DNA from: Candidatus Babeliales bacterium
GTDB lineage: Bacteria; Babelota; Babeliae; Babelales; JANWKD01
DNA: 64,000 nucleotides
Direction of reading: 5' to 3'
Assembly: GCA_963722075.1 (NCBI GenBank)
Contig: CAVRJM010000001.1
Location: 160,001-224,000, forward strand
The number at the start of each line of letters is the position of its first letter. Position 1 is the first letter of the stretch. Made by a program: the position numbers and the translations under genes. Below the pieces are notes generated by a model. It did not search any database and had not been told where the DNA came from. It saw only the letters and a list, made by a program, of their open reading frames with translations. Positions 47,102-64,000 of this stretch are shown here, in pieces.

Positions 47102-48364
47102 ATGCATTATAAAAAGCTTTTTTTATTATTCTTGTTGATTGGTATACCGTTAACAAGTAATGCTAGGCTTAAGACAGCATTGTTAAATTCGATCTTAACG
47201 AATAAATTTCATCGGCGGCTTGAGGATGTTGGCTTTGGGGGGACATGGGCTTTATTAGCAATGGGTGGTTTTCATGCAGCTGAAACAATGTGGTGGGATA
47301 AGAAACCACTTAGTAAACACAATCTTATACTACCGATTGCAGGAATTGTTACTATGATAGGAACGATGGGTTTATCTACTTATTTACAAATTAAATCAAG
47401 AAGTTGGAATCCCTTTCAAGAAGAGCTTAATGCCGCAACTAATAATTATGAGAATAAGAAAAAGGATCTTATCAAAAAACTATATGAAGTAGAGCTAAAT
47501 AAAGAAAAAGAAATAGTTGAGCGGTTGAATGAGTTAGAAACTGATTTAGATAAAAAAATAATAGAAGCACTAGATAATAACCATAATTATAAATCATTTT
47601 TCCTTTCCAGGAGCATGGGAACAGACCGATACCAAAACATACAAGAATTATTATTTAGTCGTAATCCACGGCCAAATATTCTTATTCATCTTTGTAGGTA
47701 TGGATTTAAACTCACCACTCACGAATTTCAAACAATACTGAATGAATGGCCCTTAACTGATGCTAACTATCTATTTAAAAAAATGAGTAAGTTAAAAAAA
47801 AATGGTCTTTACACACAAAATAAATGCAAAATTGTCGGATTGTCTGACTATTCTGATTGGTTGGAGCTCTGGGCAGATTATGCAAATAATTCAAATAACC
47901 TATATCGTAATATAAAACTTTTTGAACGGTTAAATAAGTATGGTACTTGTATGGATTTAACAGAAGTAGTTATTTATTGTGTTAGAAAAAACTATTTTAA
48001 TGTTATTGATTGTTTAAAAAAACAATTTGGTATTGATTTGAATAAAGGAAATAAATATGGGGAAACGCCACTTGAAACTGCTACTTTAGCTAATAATATA
48101 GTGATGGTTAAATACCTAATAGAGCAAGGTGCATCTGTGGTGAATGCGAAAACTAAAGGGTTATTATGGTTTGCTAAGAGATTTCCCGACCGCTTAATTT
48201 ATGATTATCTAAAAAGCAAATTGAGAGACCAACTAGTTGATAATTTTAAAATTATATTGGGCAATGGTTATACCAATAGATATGAATACAGAACTGGCTC
48301 TATTCCTACAGAATTGCCTGATGAACTTATACAACATATTGCCGACTATGCAGTAAAAAAATAA
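47102..48364 (+). CDS. Membrane protein with ankyrin repeats and C-terminal F-box-like motif
   Basis: Two TMs, coiled coil, GETPLETA...VKYLIEQGA, terminal LPDELIQHIADY. Confidence 0.75.
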   Translation: MHYKKLFLLFLLIGIPLTSNARLKTALLNSILTNKFHRRLEDVGFGGTWALLAMGGFHAAETMWWDKKPLSKHNLILPIAGIVTMIGTMGLSTYLQIKSRSWNPFQEELNAATNNYENKKKDLIKKLYEVELNKEKEIVERLNELETDLDKKIIEALDNNHNYKSFFLSRSMGTDRYQNIQELLFSRNPRPNILIHLCRYGFKLTTHEFQTILNEWPLTDANYLFKKMSKLKKNGLYTQNKCKIVGLSDYSDWLELWADYANNSNNLYRNIKLFERLNKYGTCMDLTEVVIYCVRKNYFNVIDCLKKQFGIDLNKGNKYGETPLETATLANNIVMVKYLIEQGASVVNAKTKGLLWFAKRFPDRLIYDYLKSKLRDQLVDNFKIILGNGYTNRYEYRTGSIPTELPDELIQHIADYAVKK

Positions 48365-48395: not shown

Positions 48396-48902
48396 ATGGA
48401 ATTATATAAAAAATTGATATTGCTTATGGGTATTATAGTGGTAATGCCTTGTGTATTTGCAATGGAGCATGAAGATGACCCAGAATTAGCGGAAGCAATG
48501 AAGCGGTCATTACTTGGGCAAAATCAATACCTGCCAAGTGCGCCCCCAATGCATGGAGTTCAAAATAGTGAAATAGCAGATCGAAATTTAGCAATAGAAC
48601 TTACCTACTCATGGAATAATTCTGAAGGCAATGGAAAAGAAAGAACGGGTAATGATGATTCTCAAAATTATGCAGGTTCTTCACGTTCACGTGGTACAAA
48701 TAGACCGGTTGATTCCACTAATTTTAATTTTGCTGCCCGTCATGCTGCACTTACCGAGTTTAAAAACAAACCATGTAATAATTGTTTTTATAGGCAAAAT
48801 CTACCTTGGTACAAAAAATATTTTCTTCCACTTATTAGTAGTGCAGCACTTTTTGGTGCGGGTAGTTTATTTACCTACGCATTGATGAAGTGGACTCGAT
48901 AA
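48396..48902 (+). CDS. Secreted tail-anchored protein with UIM-like and PSAP motifs
   Basis: EDDPELAEAMKRSL, LPSAPP, C-terminal TM. Confidence 0.7.
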   Translation: MELYKKLILLMGIIVVMPCVFAMEHEDDPELAEAMKRSLLGQNQYLPSAPPMHGVQNSEIADRNLAIELTYSWNNSEGNGKERTGNDDSQNYAGSSRSRGTNRPVDSTNFNFAARHAALTEFKNKPCNNCFYRQNLPWYKKYFLPLISSAALFGAGSLFTYALMKWTR

Positions 48903-56259: not shown

Positions 56260-57102
56260 TTATTCAGATTCTTCTTCTAGTTCTTCATTACACAGCAAAG
56301 AACTTATAGAACTTATGCCAACTTGTAATGCTTGATTTGAATCTTGAACTGGTGGGTGGTATTTGGTGATATGATTTTGTAACTCACTAGGACGTCGAAA
56401 GCTTTTCAAACAGATAGAGCATCGGTGCGGTTTGCCATCATGGGAATTCTTAATATGAGCGCTCAGTTCTTTTTTAGCGTTAAAAGCCTGATGGCATGTC
56501 CCATCTGGGCAAGTAAGTTGTAATGTTGATTTATGCTGATCAGATATATGACTTTTAAGGGTATTCTCCGTAGAGAATATTTTGAAGCATTGTGCGCAAG
56601 TGTAGTTTGATTTATTATGAATCTCTTGATGCATTTTTAACTTATAAGGACGTGGAAATCTTTTCAAGCAGATAGAGCATTGGTGTGCTTTGCCATCGTG
56701 AGCGCTCTTAATATGTTCGCTACGTTCTTTTTTAGTGGCAAAAGTCTTACGGCATTTTATATCTGGACAAGTAAACTCTACTCGATCTCGTTTTCTTTTA
56801 TGAGAATTGGTATTAGCATTACCATCATTATTAATAGCAGCGTTTTGATTATCCAAAGGATTGTTATCAATGCTTGTAGTAGAATCTTCATTTTCTTCTT
56901 CTTCAACTAATGGTTCTTTATCTATTAAACCATCATTTATTAAAGCATCATAATCTTCGGTTTCAAACGGAATTAAAAGGGTGTCGTCTTCTTCCATAAA
57001 TTCAGCCCAAGAAGAAATAGGTGAATTTTGATCATGCTCCATTGGCTGTGCTAGAAAAGGAAATAAGGCGATAATAAGTATAAAAAAGATAGGTAATCTC
57101 AT
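56260..57102 (-). CDS. Secreted protein with five C2H2 zinc fingers
   Basis: Signal peptide, acidic region, HKRKR, five Cx2-4Cx12Hx3-4H fingers with HDGKPH-type linkers. Confidence 0.9.
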   Translation of the reverse strand: MRLPIFFILIIALFPFLAQPMEHDQNSPISSWAEFMEEDDTLLIPFETEDYDALINDGLIDKEPLVEEEENEDSTTSIDNNPLDNQNAAINNDGNANTNSHKRKRDRVEFTCPDIKCRKTFATKKERSEHIKSAHDGKAHQCSICLKRFPRPYKLKMHQEIHNKSNYTCAQCFKIFSTENTLKSHISDQHKSTLQLTCPDGTCHQAFNAKKELSAHIKNSHDGKPHRCSICLKSFRRPSELQNHITKYHPPVQDSNQALQVGISSISSLLCNEELEEESE

Positions 57103-57239
57103 TTATTCTCCTTGTTAACTTTTTTACTAATTTTTTTAATAAATGGCTTAAATTGAATCTATTTTTATTCTATAAAATAGGTATATAGTTATTATTTTAT
57201 AGAAAATTATCAATTTGTCAATAAAATATATGGTTTTGA

Positions 57240-57431
57240 CAGGGCAAATGCCCTAAAAATATCGGATTCAAAAGGCTTTAATAGAATGCTGGATTGCTTC
57301 GATAAACTCGCAACGACGTTCTTTTGTTTTCGGCCGCGTCGTCGTCCCGAGCGTAGCGTGGGGATCCAGGCAAAAGTTGATAACCTTTAAATTTTTGGCT
57401 TAAATACTGTACTTTAAATGCGTTTGCCCTG
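57240..57431. mobile_element. MITE-like element with 12-bp terminal inverted repeats enclosing a REP pair
   Basis: cagggcaaatgc ... gcgtttgccctg (11/12 match); internal ctggattgcttcg..gcaacgacg and cgtcgtcccgag..ggatccag. Confidence 0.55.
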
Positions 57432-57580
57432 GTTTTTCTATTTTAAAGGGGGGATTATAGACCTTCTATTTTAGCTATAATTGAAAGAAAAATAAGATTA
57501 AAATACCTTGACTTATTCAAATAGAAAATATTATTATTATAATTAGATAAAATATTGGATAATTGAATTGGGGAAATGGT

Positions 57581-59542
57581 ATGAAGAAGCTCTTATTTTC
57601 TTGGCTTATGGCCAGTTGTTGTATGGTGATAATGCAGGTATATACAGGAGCACAGCCAACACGTTCAAAAACAGTTCCAAAAAGCAATACTATAGAAGAT
57701 ACGGGTGAGCCATTTACTCAAAGAATACAAGAGGTCAAAAAAAAGTTAGAAGCACAAAGCGCCGAACCCCAACCATTTTCAAAAGAAAGTTATGCAAAAT
57801 TAAAAGATGATTTAACAACAACGTTTAAGTCAATCGCTAAAAACGTACTTATGAGACAGTTGTATGAACGCACGTGGAATCGGTTAAAAGATCTTGCTAA
57901 CCGTATGCCTACCACTGGTGGCACCAATGTGAGGGTTGATACTGCCTTATCAGCTAATGAAAGATTATTTTTAAGTAAGCGAATGGAAACGGTACGAAAT
58001 GCATTGGAGCAATTTTTAGATACTGATTTATCAGATAGAAGAAAAATAACTGATAATGATTTAAAAATAGCATTTGTGGCAAGTGGCGGGGGCTATCGTG
58101 CTATGATTCTTACGATTGGTTACTTATCTGCGCTGCAGCAAATGGGCTTATATGATGCACTTACGTATGTTTCAACCTTATCAGGATCAAGCTGGGCGTT
58201 AGCACCGATGATTTCGCTTAATTATACACCGCAACATTATAAAGAAAAATTATTAAACTCGATTCAAAATTTAAATCTATTGGCAATTCAAAACGTTCTT
58301 TTTAAATCATTGACCAACATAAATAATCTGGTAGATACCATTATTGTGCCCAAATATTTATATAATCAGCCAATACGCTCCATTGATTTTTATGGATTTA
58401 TGTTAGCGCAAACATTATTAGGAAATGATGGGTATAAATATTATTTATCCGATCAATGGAAGATTCTTAATGATTCTAATAATGCAGGAAAAATACCTTT
58501 TCCTCTTTATTCAGCAATCTCAGTGAGTAAGAAAAAGGACAATACGTATGCTCTGGATTGGTATGAATTTGGTCCGAGCGAAGTGCGCGTGGGTTTCCCG
58601 ACGGAAGATAAAAAAGTTGCTTCATTCAATATACCTACGTATGAATTTGGTAGTGAATTTAATGCAGGAAAGCCTGTTAGAAGTGTCCCTGAAGTAATAA
58701 CGCCATACTATCTAGGGCCTGAACAAATGTTAGGGTACTATTTAGGAATTTTTGGATCTGTCTATTCAATCAATTTTAATAAGATTAATCAATTTGTTTC
58801 TGGTGGAATGGCACAATTATCAAGCGGCGGATTTTCACTCGATTCTGCAAAGAATTATATTGCGATTAGCGCCTTTAACGCGCTTCAAAATTTTAGTAAA
58901 AAAACTACGGAGAACATTTTACCAGCACAAGTATTTAACTTCTTAAAAGGATATGAAGAAGCTCCCGATTATTTACAAACAGCAGACTACCTCACCATGG
59001 GTGATGCGAGCATTGATTATAACATTCCAGCGCGCCCCGTATTATGGCCGTTACGTAATGTAAAAGTATTAATTATTGGCGATTCTTCTTCCAACATAGA
59101 ATCAGCAACCGAATTAAAGCGTTTTTTTGAAGATGCATATAAATTGTATGGCTATCAATATACACGTATTGATACGGGCGATAATAAAACCATTCGTTTT
59201 TATAAAGATTTAAAAAATAGCAAAGCACCACGAGTTGTTTATGTTAATTTTGTAAAAGATATAGATTTAATAGAGCAAGCTAAAATAAAAAATAAAGAAC
59301 TGCGAGATTTAATTGAAGTTACGCGCTTAGAACAATTTGATCCAGTCGCCTGCATTCAAACTAAACCCAATAATTTTTGTGACGCCTTTAATTTTAACTA
59401 TTCCAAAACAGATTATGAACAACTCATTGGTATTTCAGAATTCAACATGAAAGTTAATATAGAGAATATTAAACGCTTTTTAATTGATGAAATGGTAAAA
59501 AATCTGGAAGACGTTAATTTCCCCGTTTTTGGCCAACCGTAA
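57581..59542 (+). CDS. cPLA2/lysophospholipase (PLA2_B-type catalytic domain), secreted
   Basis: ASGGGYRAM oxyanion motif, YVSTLSGSSW nucleophile, PFPLY, WYEFGPSE, late DASIDYNIP...RNVKVLIIGD. Confidence 0.85.
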   Translation: MKKLLFSWLMASCCMVIMQVYTGAQPTRSKTVPKSNTIEDTGEPFTQRIQEVKKKLEAQSAEPQPFSKESYAKLKDDLTTTFKSIAKNVLMRQLYERTWNRLKDLANRMPTTGGTNVRVDTALSANERLFLSKRMETVRNALEQFLDTDLSDRRKITDNDLKIAFVASGGGYRAMILTIGYLSALQQMGLYDALTYVSTLSGSSWALAPMISLNYTPQHYKEKLLNSIQNLNLLAIQNVLFKSLTNINNLVDTIIVPKYLYNQPIRSIDFYGFMLAQTLLGNDGYKYYLSDQWKILNDSNNAGKIPFPLYSAISVSKKKDNTYALDWYEFGPSEVRVGFPTEDKKVASFNIPTYEFGSEFNAGKPVRSVPEVITPYYLGPEQMLGYYLGIFGSVYSINFNKINQFVSGGMAQLSSGGFSLDSAKNYIAISAFNALQNFSKKTTENILPAQVFNFLKGYEEAPDYLQTADYLTMGDASIDYNIPARPVLWPLRNVKVLIIGDSSSNIESATELKRFFEDAYKLYGYQYTRIDTGDNKTIRFYKDLKNSKAPRVVYVNFVKDIDLIEQAKIKNKELRDLIEVTRLEQFDPVACIQTKPNNFCDAFNFNYSKTDYEQLIGISEFNMKVNIENIKRFLIDEMVKNLEDVNFPVFGQP

Positions 59543-59543
59543 A

Positions 59544-60188
59544 TTATTGATTGGTTGAATTCTCAGATGATGATGATGTTTCTTCCCCTTCTTGCATAAT
59601 GTCTTTACCGATTTGTGCATCTTGTTCTATTTCTAAATGTTGTTTGCTCTTCTTATGCGCCGGAATATGCTTATTTAATTTAGATTGAGACTCGTAAGCT
59701 TTTGAACAATATTCGCATTTATAAGGCTTCCCATTATGTTGAATTTTCATATGATTAGAGTATTCATAATTTTTTTCGGCAAAAGTTGTACCACAGCCTG
59801 GAAAAGGACAAGTATATGGCTCTTGGATACTATGATCTCTTTGTAAGTGATAAATTAGCTCTTTCTGTTGATTGAAAATTTTACCACATTCTTCAATGGT
59901 ACATTTATATTCTGATATAGAACGTTTTCTTTTACGAGAACTACTAGTTGTAGTTGATGAAGTAGTAGATGAGTTAGTAAGATTTTCTGTAGTTTCCTGG
60001 GTAGTATTTGTAGTATCTATAGAATTCTGTTTTTTGGAATGAAATTTTTTCATATGTGTATTATATGTTTTTTCACTCACAAATTTTGCTTGACATGGTT
60101 TACAATAGCGGTAACTACTTGGATCTCGATGGTTTCTTGCCCGATGCTTTCTTAATGCGTCCGCGGTTGTGGATGCAGAATTAGCCAT
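59544..60188 (-). CDS. C2H2 zinc-finger protein (four fingers), N-terminally truncated
   Basis: Begins with a half finger (LRKHRARNH), SSRKRKRS, HNGKPY linker; no signal peptide. Confidence 0.8.
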   Translation of the reverse strand: MANSASTTADALRKHRARNHRDPSSYRYCKPCQAKFVSEKTYNTHMKKFHSKKQNSIDTTNTTQETTENLTNSSTTSSTTTSSSRKRKRSISEYKCTIEECGKIFNQQKELIYHLQRDHSIQEPYTCPFPGCGTTFAEKNYEYSNHMKIQHNGKPYKCEYCSKAYESQSKLNKHIPAHKKSKQHLEIEQDAQIGKDIMQEGEETSSSSENSTNQ

Positions 60189-60289
60189 TAATAACCTATT
60201 TCTTACAATTTTAACCGGAGAATTTAGGTTAACTAACGTAAATTATATTTTATTCAGTTCTTTCAATATCAGGCCAAATGGGTAACTTT

Positions 60290-61711
60290 TTAGTTGTTTT
60301 TACTATTGAGCGTCAATAATAATCCAATTAAATCAGTTTCCAAATCTTGATATTGGGTGTTATTGTTGGGGTTATGGTCAGGCTGAGGTCCTTCTTCTTC
60401 TTCTTCTTCGCGGTTTACAACTGATGAAATGGCGGGCGGCATATTTGATAGATTGTGCGCATATGAGTCCACAATTTGAGCAGCATTATTACTCGTTGTT
60501 GATGATACCGTAGCTACATCAGGAACTATTGCAAATGGTGTTTGTTCTTCTTGCTGTATCATCTGATCAGGCCTGTTAGTAGATGCTGCATTACGATCAT
60601 TATAGTTGCTGATATGCTTTTGGAGATCCTCGAATTTTTTAGGGCATTTTGGTACATGTTTATCAAAAATTCTTTTGCTCACATATACAATTGAGCATAT
60701 CGGACATGTATATTTAACTTTGTTGTGAGTCTTTATATGCCGGGTTAAGTCACAGTTGCGTTTAAAAGACTTTCCGCAATCTTCATACTGACATATAAGA
60801 GATTTATCTTGCAATTGAGTAACATTTTCTGTTTGGTTATTTTCTTCTTCTTCTTCTGGTTCTTCCGAATCATAAGATTGGTTACTATTGTTATCTTTCT
60901 TATGATATCTCGATTTATGTTTATATAACGCCGCACGAGTAGGACATTTTGTTGAGCAAATTTCACAAAAAAATCCAGGTTTAGTATGTGTTTCTATATG
61001 TGCATCTAATTGATTAGTACGTTTAAAGGACATATTGCAACCTTTATAGTGACATTTATATCGTTTTTCTTGAACTTGAGTAGCATTTTGTACCGATTGT
61101 GTTGATCGTTTTCTTTTTCGGGAACTGCCGGCTGTTGTATTTATATCATTGTTAGAAGATTCTGGTAATTTACTCTGTTCTTGGGTTGATAAATTTGTAA
61201 GAATGTTAGCATCTTGTTGGTGATGAAGTATGGTATGGATTTCTAAAATATGGGGAAACCGTGATGTTGTCCTGCACCCTTTTAGTGAACATTTAAGACG
61301 TTCTGGTGATGCCATATCTTTATGGTGATTCCTACAATGAGTAGAATAAGTAATAGAATTTTCAAATTTATCGCTGCAATATACACATATAATTGGTAAT
61401 TTTATATGGAATTGCAAATGGCGTCTTAGAAGATTTTCATCATCATCAGAGTATTTTTCCCCGCAACTAGGAATGGCACAGGTAGCGGTATTTTCAGAAC
61501 GATTTATATGATTTTCTTTCATATGCGCTAATAGATCACGATATTTCATTGGAGCTTCGGTGCAACCAGGGCATTGAAATGAATTAACAAATGATTGTGC
61601 TACTTCTGGTTGAGAAACAGCGGTTTGGGTAGGTGGATTAGGATCCTCCATTGCCCTAAAGGTAGTGGGTACTAAACTGATAATAAGTAAAAAAAAGCTC
61701 CATTTATTCAT
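60290..61711 (-). CDS. Secreted protein with eight C2H2/C2HC zinc fingers
   Basis: Signal ending FRA-ME, SSRKRKRS, CQYEDCGKSFKRNCDLTRHIKTH. Confidence 0.9.
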   Translation of the reverse strand: MNKWSFFLLIISLVPTTFRAMEDPNPPTQTAVSQPEVAQSFVNSFQCPGCTEAPMKYRDLLAHMKENHINRSENTATCAIPSCGEKYSDDDENLLRRHLQFHIKLPIICVYCSDKFENSITYSTHCRNHHKDMASPERLKCSLKGCRTTSRFPHILEIHTILHHQQDANILTNLSTQEQSKLPESSNNDINTTAGSSRKRKRSTQSVQNATQVQEKRYKCHYKGCNMSFKRTNQLDAHIETHTKPGFFCEICSTKCPTRAALYKHKSRYHKKDNNSNQSYDSEEPEEEEENNQTENVTQLQDKSLICQYEDCGKSFKRNCDLTRHIKTHNKVKYTCPICSIVYVSKRIFDKHVPKCPKKFEDLQKHISNYNDRNAASTNRPDQMIQQEEQTPFAIVPDVATVSSTTSNNAAQIVDSYAHNLSNMPPAISSVVNREEEEEEGPQPDHNPNNNTQYQDLETDLIGLLLTLNSKNN

Positions 61712-61799
61712 AAAGATATTCCTTTTTAAATAAAATCTATTATATACTATAATTTTATATTAAATTTCCAATTTGTCAATAAAAAAAGCATTAAGCTAT

Positions 61800-64000
61800 C
61801 TATTTTGTTGTAGGATTGAGAATTCGTAATAATTGTAATAACGCTTCTCGCTGGTCTTCTTCGGTTTCCTGTTCCTGGTAACTTGCAGCCGACGAGTTGG
61901 TATGTAAAATATTTGATGGTTGTTGTGCATATAAGCCTATTATTTGGGCAGTATTACTTGTTGTTAATGTTGTTGTATTAGGATTTGTTGCAACTATATG
62001 TTCTTCTTGTTGTTCTGTGCGATTAGTTGTGTTGGTAGATGCTGCACCAATATCATGATAGTAGCTAAGATGTCTGTCTAAAAAATCCTGAAAGCTATAT
62101 GTATAGTTACCTGAGCATAAATGGCATGTAAATTGACCTTTATGATCATCGGCATGTTTATTGCGGCAATGGTGCTGGTAAGATTTATAAGTGACAAACG
62201 GTTTTAAACAAGCTGAACTGTATGCGCAATGGATATCTTCATTAATATGAGTTAGCATATGTGTTTTTATCCATTCGGTATTCGTTTCTATATTACAATT
62301 TTTGATAGTACAAATACATTTTTTATCTGAATTGGGCGCATCGATTGTATGTTCTTGTACCATATGGTTTATTAAATCTGGAAGTTTCTTAGTAACATGA
62401 CAATTTGGACACTTAAATATGTTACACTTCCATCTATCGGTTTGGTGATTATTGTGGTTAACGTCTATGGTTACTGTATTATTGGATTGTTGCTCAGGCC
62501 GTTGAGCTACTGTTGTTTCTTCTTCTTCAGGTTCTTCAGAGCGATTGATCAACTGTGTGGGTATTTCTCGAATACTTGCAGGGATAACATAATGGTTCTT
62601 ATGATATCGTGCCAAATGTATTATTAGTGAGGGAAGAAAGTTGAACGATATGTGGCATTCTTTATTAGGGCATATACGTTTTGTTTTCTCAGTGGCATGA
62701 ATTTTTTTAACATGGTTATTATGATTATCGAATGTGTGAAGTTCTTTTGAGCAGTACATGCAAGTAAAATTTTCTTTAATGTGTGTTTTCAAATGTTGCT
62801 TAATACTTCTCATTAATTGGTCACTATCATTGTTTACAAAGGTTTTATTACATTTGTTGCATTTATATTGTCCTTCAGATTTAATAGTGTGATCTTGTAA
62901 CATATGCTCTACTAATGCATAATATTTCATAGGGTTTTGTAAACATCCTGTGCAGGGGCAACTGAATAAGATAAAATAATGATAATCGTAGTACTCCTGC
63001 GGTGTATGGTAATAGGTAGAGCCCACTTGCGCGGGATCTAATGTTTTTGCAAAAAATGTCTTATAATTAGTATCATGATACCGTGCCATATGTATTATTA
63101 AAAAAGGAAGAAATGTTAACTTTAGGTTGCAATTTTGTTCAGGACATTGAAACGTGTTACTTTTAATGGCATGGTTATATTTACAATGTTTATAATACGT
63201 ACTTAATTTATAAAATTCTTCTGAGCAATACATACAAATGAAATGTTCGTTAATATATGTTTTCAGATGTTGTTTAGTATCTTTTATTAATTGCTTCTCA
63301 TTATTGTTTTCAATTGTTGTATGACATTTGTTGCACGTATATTGTCCTTCAGATTTAGTAGTATGATCTTGTAACATATGCTTTACCAATGCATAATATT
63401 TCATATTTTTGCTTGGGCATTTCAAGGGACAATCAAATGAAATAGAAAAATGATGGTCGTAATATTCTTGTGCTATTTTTTCTTCAAGATGAGTGGTGTT
63501 ATCCGTAGCAGACATCGTATTAGTAGTTATTACCGGTGGTGTTTGCTCTTCTTGCTGTGCTCTGGGATTAGATATATTAATAGGTGTTATGCTACGTTGT
63601 GCCACATCTTGATAGCTGCCTCTTTGTAAAGAGTCAGGAAACGTAAATGTATCGTTACTGCTTGGGCATTCAAATGTGTTAGACATACATCGATTAATTG
63701 TGGAATCACTACTATTATCAGTAACCATGGGGGTTAATGCGTTATTGTGTTGTTCAGCTTGCTCGGCTATTTCTTCAAGTTGGGTAAAAAAGTCATTTAA
63801 TTCTCCAAAGTCATCCATATTATAAATATCGTCATCTGCAAATATTGATTGAGGAGGCGTTAGTATGGTGGTATTGATATCATTATCAATTGATTCTTGC
63901 TGGTTATTAGTTGTACCATGACTCGTATTAGTTGAAGCATTTTGTATAGCTTCTGTTGGACGTTTTCTTTTACGGTAATTGTTTGTTCTAGTGGTGTTAT
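61800..64000 (-). CDS. Large C2H2 zinc-finger protein (about 12 fingers); start lies beyond the window
   Basis: Frame is open from 63998 (NTTRTNNYRKRKRP...DDDIYN-MDDF); three tandem four-finger modules. Confidence 0.88.
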   Translation of the reverse strand, partial: NTTRTNNYRKRKRPTEAIQNASTNTSHGTTNNQQESIDNDINTTILTPPQSIFADDDIYNMDDFGELNDFFTQLEEIAEQAEQHNNALTPMVTDNSSDSTINRCMSNTFECPSSNDTFTFPDSLQRGSYQDVAQRSITPINISNPRAQQEEQTPPVITTNTMSATDNTTHLEEKIAQEYYDHHFSISFDCPLKCPSKNMKYYALVKHMLQDHTTKSEGQYTCNKCHTTIENNNEKQLIKDTKQHLKTYINEHFICMYCSEEFYKLSTYYKHCKYNHAIKSNTFQCPEQNCNLKLTFLPFLIIHMARYHDTNYKTFFAKTLDPAQVGSTYYHTPQEYYDYHYFILFSCPCTGCLQNPMKYYALVEHMLQDHTIKSEGQYKCNKCNKTFVNNDSDQLMRSIKQHLKTHIKENFTCMYCSKELHTFDNHNNHVKKIHATEKTKRICPNKECHISFNFLPSLIIHLARYHKNHYVIPASIREIPTQLINRSEEPEEEETTVAQRPEQQSNNTVTIDVNHNNHQTDRWKCNIFKCPNCHVTKKLPDLINHMVQEHTIDAPNSDKKCICTIKNCNIETNTEWIKTHMLTHINEDIHCAYSSACLKPFVTYKSYQHHCRNKHADDHKGQFTCHLCSGNYTYSFQDFLDRHLSYYHDIGAASTNTTNRTEQQEEHIVATNPNTTTLTTSNTAQIIGLYAQQPSNILHTNSSAASYQEQETEEDQREALLQLLRILNPTTK

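Follow-up and report, generated by a model that had tools for sequence, protein, structure and literature searches.

A PSAP motif and a weak UIM-like helix on a predicted secreted protein with a hydrophobic tail in a Babelota genome

The P0001 gene and its setting

The window analysed here, a 64,000-nucleotide stretch of a Candidatus Babeliales contig, includes a short gene (P0001) located between gyrB and a rapZ-like gene, where signal-peptide genes form a variable island. The sequence GAGGAA, which resembles a ribosome-binding site, lies 6 nt 5' of the P0001 ATG, whilst a promoter scan returned background-level signals only. Translation of the reading frame recovered every element described in the earlier note, from the signal-peptide start, the UIM-pattern helix and LPSAPP to the helix ADRNLAIEL and the C-terminal hydrophobic stretch (Table 1).

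Table 1. Features of P0001, with positions in the window
Feature	Residues	Position	Strand	Basis
ORF P0001, 168 aa		48396..48902	+	Translation
Predicted Sec signal peptide, cleavage before Met-Glu	1-22	48396..48461	+	Sequence and heuristic
UIM-like helix 1, weak; acidic, L31, A34, M35, S38	24-39	48465..48512	+	Pattern match
PSAP (within LPSAPP, 46-51), candidate Tsg101/Vps23 UEV ligand	47-50	48534..48545	+	Exact match, same in P0003
Helix 2, containing ADRNLAIEL (61-69)	61-70	48576..48605	+	Alignment with P0003 UIM, decayed
CxxC, N-terminal to tail	127-130	48774..48785	+	Seen in four of five family members
Tail: PWYKKY, Gly/Ala/Ser-rich hydrophobic helix, basic end (KWTR)	146-164 (helix)	48804..48899	+	Hydrophobicity, flanking charge

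The signal peptide is of a type common in the lineage and is kept in all five members of the P0001 family described below, whilst C130 of the CxxC motif is invariant in the five-member alignment. In a genome of the same genus (G001) the flanking genes are syntenic and the P0001 gene is absent from that site. The reading frame is intact; a frameshift was ruled out as the cause of the diverged middle of the protein, as the other frames hold no frameshifted remnant. Four contigs from eight runs match P0001 only in parts away from the motifs. Comparison with PDB sequences gave nothing relevant, a Pfam scan gave no family at E<=10, and an AlphaFold model built from five sequences was uninformative (mean pLDDT 49.4).

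Upstream of P0001, at 47102-48364 of the window, lies a gene for a signal-peptide ankyrin protein that ends in a short LPxELxxHIA motif. This ending resembles the F-box-like C-termini of ankyrin effectors; the protein has no Pfam F-box match.

A small and variable protein family

Family searches closed at five proteins (P0001, P0003, P0006, P0007 and P0008), which have in common a signal peptide and a WYKKY-helix-basic tail. The closest homologue of P0001 is P0003, at 37% identity overall, with signal and tail near-identical and the middle diverged. P0003 carries an exact PSAP followed by a UIM that scores 21.5 bits against Pfam PF02809 (curated cut-off 21 bits) and 33.3 bits against a UIM profile of the lineage. 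When the two proteins are aligned the PSAPs are paired and the P0003 UIM lies opposite helix 2 of P0001; BLAST instead pairs that UIM with helix 1. P0006 lacks PSAP and its UIM is degenerate, whilst neither motif is present in P0007 or P0008; in all, a clear UIM is present in one of the five members and PSAP in two. On conservation in homologues, which the earlier note had named as a check, P0003 keeps the PSAP and the remaining three proteins lack it. Because only two of the five members have the UIM+PSAP pair, it is, on these comparisons, an N-terminal module that members may or may not carry, and not the family core. A core domain is common to P0003, P0006, P0007 and P0008, and in P0001 is partly replaced by Asn/Ser/Gly-rich sequence.

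Used alone as a query, P0001 matched none of 60 relatives. A four-member profile gave eight weak matches in 260 other genomes, the seven inspected being unlike family members, and a five-member profile found no further protein. Searching the ESM Atlas with P0003 returned scores under 0.8 only, and DNA scans of genome and metagenome contigs found no P0001 relatives; a DNA scan for the neighbouring rapZ-like gene likewise found none.

The UIM-like helices and the PSAP motif

The UIM consensus is an acidic run followed by hydrophobic-x-x-Ala-hydrophobic-x-x-Ser. Helix 1 of P0001 reads EHEDDPELAEAMKRSL, and its segment E26-L39 fits a strict form of this pattern, as do four of the 1381 ORFs of the genome in total. 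Its Asp-Pro-Glu-Leu opening presumably resembles those of the Rpn10 and Vps27 UIMs. PF02809 gave no match to P0001 at E<=10, whether with the whole protein, a fragment or a genome search. Against the lineage profile, which was made from 29 UIM matches of the phylum (the 30 loci analysed below minus L030), helix 1 scores 11.2 bits and ranks 10 of 401,687 windows; leave-one-out scores of the 29 training UIMs are 19-31 bits, all exceeding that of helix 1, whose score falls among ordinary acidic helices. Judged by pattern and profile together, helix 1 fits the consensus yet is weak or degenerate as a UIM, and the earlier assignment of a UIM survives as a consensus match that scores below every genuine UIM of the lineage. 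Helix 2 scores 1.9 bits on the same profile (rank 460). It also fits an MIU-type pattern, D-x-x-L-A-x-x-L, a reading that was dropped since a loose form of this pattern is present in 27 of the 1381 ORFs. UIM affinities are low and reliant on tandem copies (PMC7226360).

The PSAP of P0001 falls in a coil in the low-confidence model, at pLDDT <50. Shuffling residues 23-136 of the protein 200,000 times produced a loose UIM pattern in 0.23% of cases and P[ST]AP in 0.31%, and the two coincided in a single shuffle, for patterns drawn up after the protein was seen. Two of the 1381 called ORFs combine the loose UIM pattern with P[ST]AP, the second being a tRNA-synthetase-like housekeeping protein, and P0001 is the only one to combine P[ST]AP with the strict pattern. 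Genome-wide, signal-peptide ORFs show no enrichment of P[ST]AP (4 of 541, compared with 5 of 840 other ORFs). Across 627 signal-peptide ORFs it occurs four times, compared with 0-10 times (mean about 4.5) for its 11 permutations; genome-wide enrichment was rejected.

Among the phylum loci, P[ST]AP is found in 1 of 30 UIM proteins (0.39 expected) and in 4 of 31 RING ORFs (0.14 expected), although three of these four RING proteins are homologues. Run over 261 genomes, a combined UIM+PSAP profile brought up no further strong match; its seven weak matches in the other 259 genomes (E 0.02-0.05) are no more than chance. Support for the PSAP is, on these counts, local, coming from P0003, from a protein of genome G004 described below and from the RING ORFs, and not genome-wide.

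The C-terminal tail

The tail is the best-conserved part of the P0001 family, with W138-Y142 invariant in all five members. Its helix has basic flanks on both sides and is moderately hydrophobic (Kyte-Doolittle 19-mer 1.54, the same measure giving 1.84-2.79 for five single-span inner-membrane proteins of the genome). On the contig that carries P0001 there are 43 ORFs with a signal peptide and a C-terminal hydrophobic tail, P0001 alone having a PSAP. An aromatic-basic motif ahead of the helix, itself derived from this tail class, is seen in 7 of 31 short-C-tail ORFs of the class and in 26 of 1252 other C-termini, and several of the 43 ORFs carry an aromatic-Q/K-basic motif at this place. The class possibly reflects a sorting or tail-anchor signal that has not been described.

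Sorting domains of the GlyGly-CTERM type are similar in having a short motif, a helix and a basic end on a Sec substrate, together with type II secretion genes. Rhomboid is the protease of GlyGly-CTERM sorting, and none was found in the genome. P0001 differs further in lacking any NCBIfam sorting-domain match; it falls outside the GlyGly-CTERM-type definition and no rhombosortase was found.

One RING protein of the lineage (L045:2756-3205, the ORF running past the locus end) combines a signal peptide and a RING domain with a PWMKK-helix tail like that of P0001, and 2 of 29 other RING ORFs have both signal and tail. Taken with the helix of P0001 being weaker than inner-membrane anchors, this similar tail is only suggestive of export of the tail protein to the host.

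Ubiquitin-system proteins with signal peptides across the phylum

The phylum set comprised 261 genomes, those listed all belonging to one order. UIM matches were found in 35 of them at E<=0.05, of which about 13 are expected by chance and six lie above the cut-off, and in none of 14 controls. By eye, 26 of the top 30 UIM loci have a signal-peptide-like start; of the other four, two are truncated 5' and two are short fragments. A Pfam scan of 16 loci chosen among these 30 identified three USP and three RING domains above cut-off and, in one further protein, ankyrins with an F-box-like match just under it. RING domains are present in 155 of the 261 genomes, with signal peptides on 23 of 29 parsed RING ORFs, and ubiquitin domains in 13, the top two loci being on signal-peptide proteins; neither domain was found in the 14 controls. 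Signal-peptide proteins with UIM, RING, USP, F-box-like and ubiquitin domains are thus widespread (L002-L031, L044-L055, L140-L169).

Because these UIM, RING, USP and ubiquitin domains need eukaryotic partners, it is very likely that Sec-signal proteins of the lineage reach the host. Such proteins are common across the phylum, and export to the host cytosol is therefore plausible. The evidence for this phylum-wide set, which we did not meet in the literature searched (titles and abstract openings), is stronger than that for P0001 alone.

A protein of the same bacterial family that is unrelated to P0001 (L018; L058:7610-8500, genome G004) has a signal peptide and several UIM-like helices, with a PSAP between them. 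Another unrelated signal-peptide protein (L028:400-1629, genome G003) is rich in UIMs and has no PSAP. Both UIM-rich proteins are located in the variable island after gyrB.

Lifestyle and secretion

The genome that encodes P0001 is 1.47 Mb with about 35% GC, and contains ATP/ADP-translocase-family genes; by a crude heuristic, 541 of its 1381 ORFs have a signal peptide. We infer that it fits a Babelota (Dependentiae) parasite, likely one infecting protists. The published description of Chromulinavorax gives 44% signal peptides, together with ankyrins, export by Sec and outer-membrane vesicles (PMC6561590). The P0001 genome encodes GspC, two secretins, a PilM-like protein and PulE-type ATPases, as well as USP, RING and C2H2 zinc-finger proteins with signal peptides. 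Type II secretion genes and two secretins lie near the gene for a signal-peptide USP deubiquitinase (L172:6062-17263; about 1149061-1160265 of the contig), a protein that holds the genome's top UIM-profile match.

A possible ubiquitin and Tsg101 adaptor

The most likely reading, to which we give somewhat less than an even chance, is that P0001 is exported, sits in a host membrane by its tail and serves as an adaptor between ubiquitin and Tsg101 of the protist host, working in an ESCRT-0-like or late-domain-like manner. The protein would be exported by Sec with its signal cleaved at residue 22, and would probably leave the cell by the type II secretion system, for which genes are present, or in outer-membrane vesicles; its weakly hydrophobic tail may slip past the translocon. 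The tail would then enter a host membrane around the bacterium, leaving the N-terminus in the cytosol. There, by analogy, one or two UIM-like helices may bind ubiquitin at low affinity and PSAP the UEV domain, so that ESCRT-I would be drawn in to repair the membrane or to bud host material inwards. The earlier note had placed a secreted, tail-anchored effector in a vacuole membrane: the signal-like start and hydrophobic tail are present, whilst export and vacuole placement are interpretation and not observation. Recruitment of ubiquitin and ESCRT-I, as it also proposed, gains from the PSAP and cut-off-passing UIM of P0003 and from the many ubiquitin-system proteins that the phylum very likely exports, but is weakened by the degenerate UIM of P0001, the three family members without PSAP and the lack of P[ST]AP enrichment.

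Three other explanations deserve weight. In P0001 the ubiquitin/ESCRT module of an exported effector may be in decay, with P0003 as the working form and P0001 retaining one activity at most, or none. The profile scores of its helices (1.9 bits for helix 2, which aligns with the P0003 UIM, and 11.2 for helix 1, against 33.3 for P0003), the partial replacement of the family core and the degenerate, PSAP-less P0006 all point that way. We nevertheless consider this unlikely: the frame is intact with no remnant in other frames, the PSAP is exact, and helix 1 keeps both the acidic-L-A-hydrophobic-S pattern and, presumably, an Rpn10/Vps27-like start. Signal peptide plus C-terminal helix usually denotes an inner-membrane protein with its N-domain in the periplasm, and P0001 could by this default topology be an ordinary envelope protein, exported by Sec and held by a stop-transfer helix, whose motifs never meet host cytosol. 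That the tail rather than the motifs is best conserved, that PSAP occurs in P0001 only among the 43 ORFs of this architecture and that no rhomboid was found in the genome are all consistent with such a protein. It is quite unlikely in our view, however, as the UIM of P0003 would be useless in the periplasm, the RING protein has a similar tail and the P0001 helix is weaker than the genome's own inner-membrane anchors.

An exported, tail-anchored effector might also have a different partner or place, its UIM binding ATG8 or shielding ubiquitinated membrane from autophagy and its tail being mitochondrial rather than vacuolar. A moderately hydrophobic helix with basic flanks, such as P0001 has, is typical of mitochondrial tail anchors. 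UIMs are able to bind ATG8 (PMC9400066), and Chromulinavorax replicates in the cytoplasm wrapped by a mitochondrion (PMC6561590). This explanation leaves the PSAP beside a UIM in two homologues and in the unrelated L018 unaccounted for, and we regard it as improbable.

Extending the adaptor reading to the lineage, Babelota might export synthetic, tail-anchored ESCRT-0 adaptors, with a true UIM and a viral-style PSAP, that set off ESCRT-mediated budding or mending of the membrane enclosing the parasite, as part of a large Sec/type II-exported ubiquitin toolkit of UIM, RING, USP, F-box, ubiquitin mimics and PSAP-bearing RING ligases. Drawn from sequence comparisons, this broader proposal is somewhat unlikely; if true, it would give bacteria a P[S/T]AP late domain of their own, and membrane-anchored effectors would have a way out of Gram-negative cells that needs neither type III nor type IV secretion.

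Comparison with known systems

Late-domain mimicry is established in viruses and Toxoplasma, and a bacterial UIM+PSAP adaptor, if true, would extend it to bacteria. We found no such effector in the literature searched (titles and abstract openings, mostly of open-access papers). An adaptor of this kind would suggest how parasites nearly without metabolism draw membrane or cytosol from protist hosts, and the 50-residue segment of P0001 offers a testable handle on how the lineage's Sec-signal proteins reach the host.

With Hrs/Vps27 (and STAM/Hse1) P0001 shares a UIM and P[S/T]AP in one chain, but in 168 residues it has no VHS, FYVE, GAT/coiled-coil or clathrin box, and its membrane tail stands where Hrs has PI3P binding. 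Mimicry of Hrs/Vps27, as first suggested, can hence apply in a functional sense only; membership of the Hrs family was rejected, P0001 having no Pfam family at E<=10. Hrs and STAM are not known outside animals and fungi. In amoebae Tom1 takes the ESCRT-0 role, binding ubiquitin and Tsg101 (PMC7952518), and Tsg101-dependent repair of bacterial vacuoles exists (PMC6329560). The P[S/T]AP motif of Hrs binds the TSG101 UEV domain (PMC10159163).

Short P[S/T]AP mimics that draw ESCRT-I to a membrane are found in viral late-domain proteins of the HIV-1 Gag p6 type; unlike these, P0001 is not viral and has an extra ubiquitin-reading helix and a signal peptide. GRA14 of the intracellular parasite Toxoplasma is secreted, crosses the membrane once and carries a P[T/S]AP motif; it recruits TSG101 to the vacuole via PTAP and was found through the same motif and signal-peptide logic (PMC8700025, PMC10159163). 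GRA14 differs in that it comes from a eukaryotic parasite and in that its motif lies at the C-terminus, has been demonstrated on the host-cytosol side and occurs together with YPX(n)L; the available parts of these sources describe no UIM for it, and the comparison with P0001 is by description. The secreted bacterial proteins EsxG/EsxH and SopB act on ESCRT at the vacuole but bind or inhibit Hrs and do not imitate it (PMC10159163, Table 2). In the same table of this 2023 review, none of the bacterial ESCRT recruiters is assigned a motif.

Other candidate effectors

Three RING proteins of one family (L151, L162 and L166) have a signal peptide and a C-terminal RING and, alone among 11 aligned homologues, carry P[ST]AP, each at the same position of the linker. 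L157 likewise has a signal peptide and a C-terminal RING, with P[ST]AP twice just before the RING. These proteins are reminiscent of the eukaryotic Tsg101-binding ligases Tal/LRSAM1 and MGRN1.

An internal domain close to ubiquitin is found in three signal-peptide proteins (L044:230-1321, L044:1372-2382 and L045:1417-1992), that of the second L044 copy being about 80% identical to ubiquitins of viral contigs. By sequence these are possible ubiquitin decoys. Within the window, C2H2 zinc-finger genes are clustered at positions 56260-63818; signal peptides are encoded by at least two of them and basic NLS-like stretches by two, and a phospholipase-domain gene (57563-59542) adjoins the cluster; from their domains, these genes likely encode nuclear and membrane effectors.
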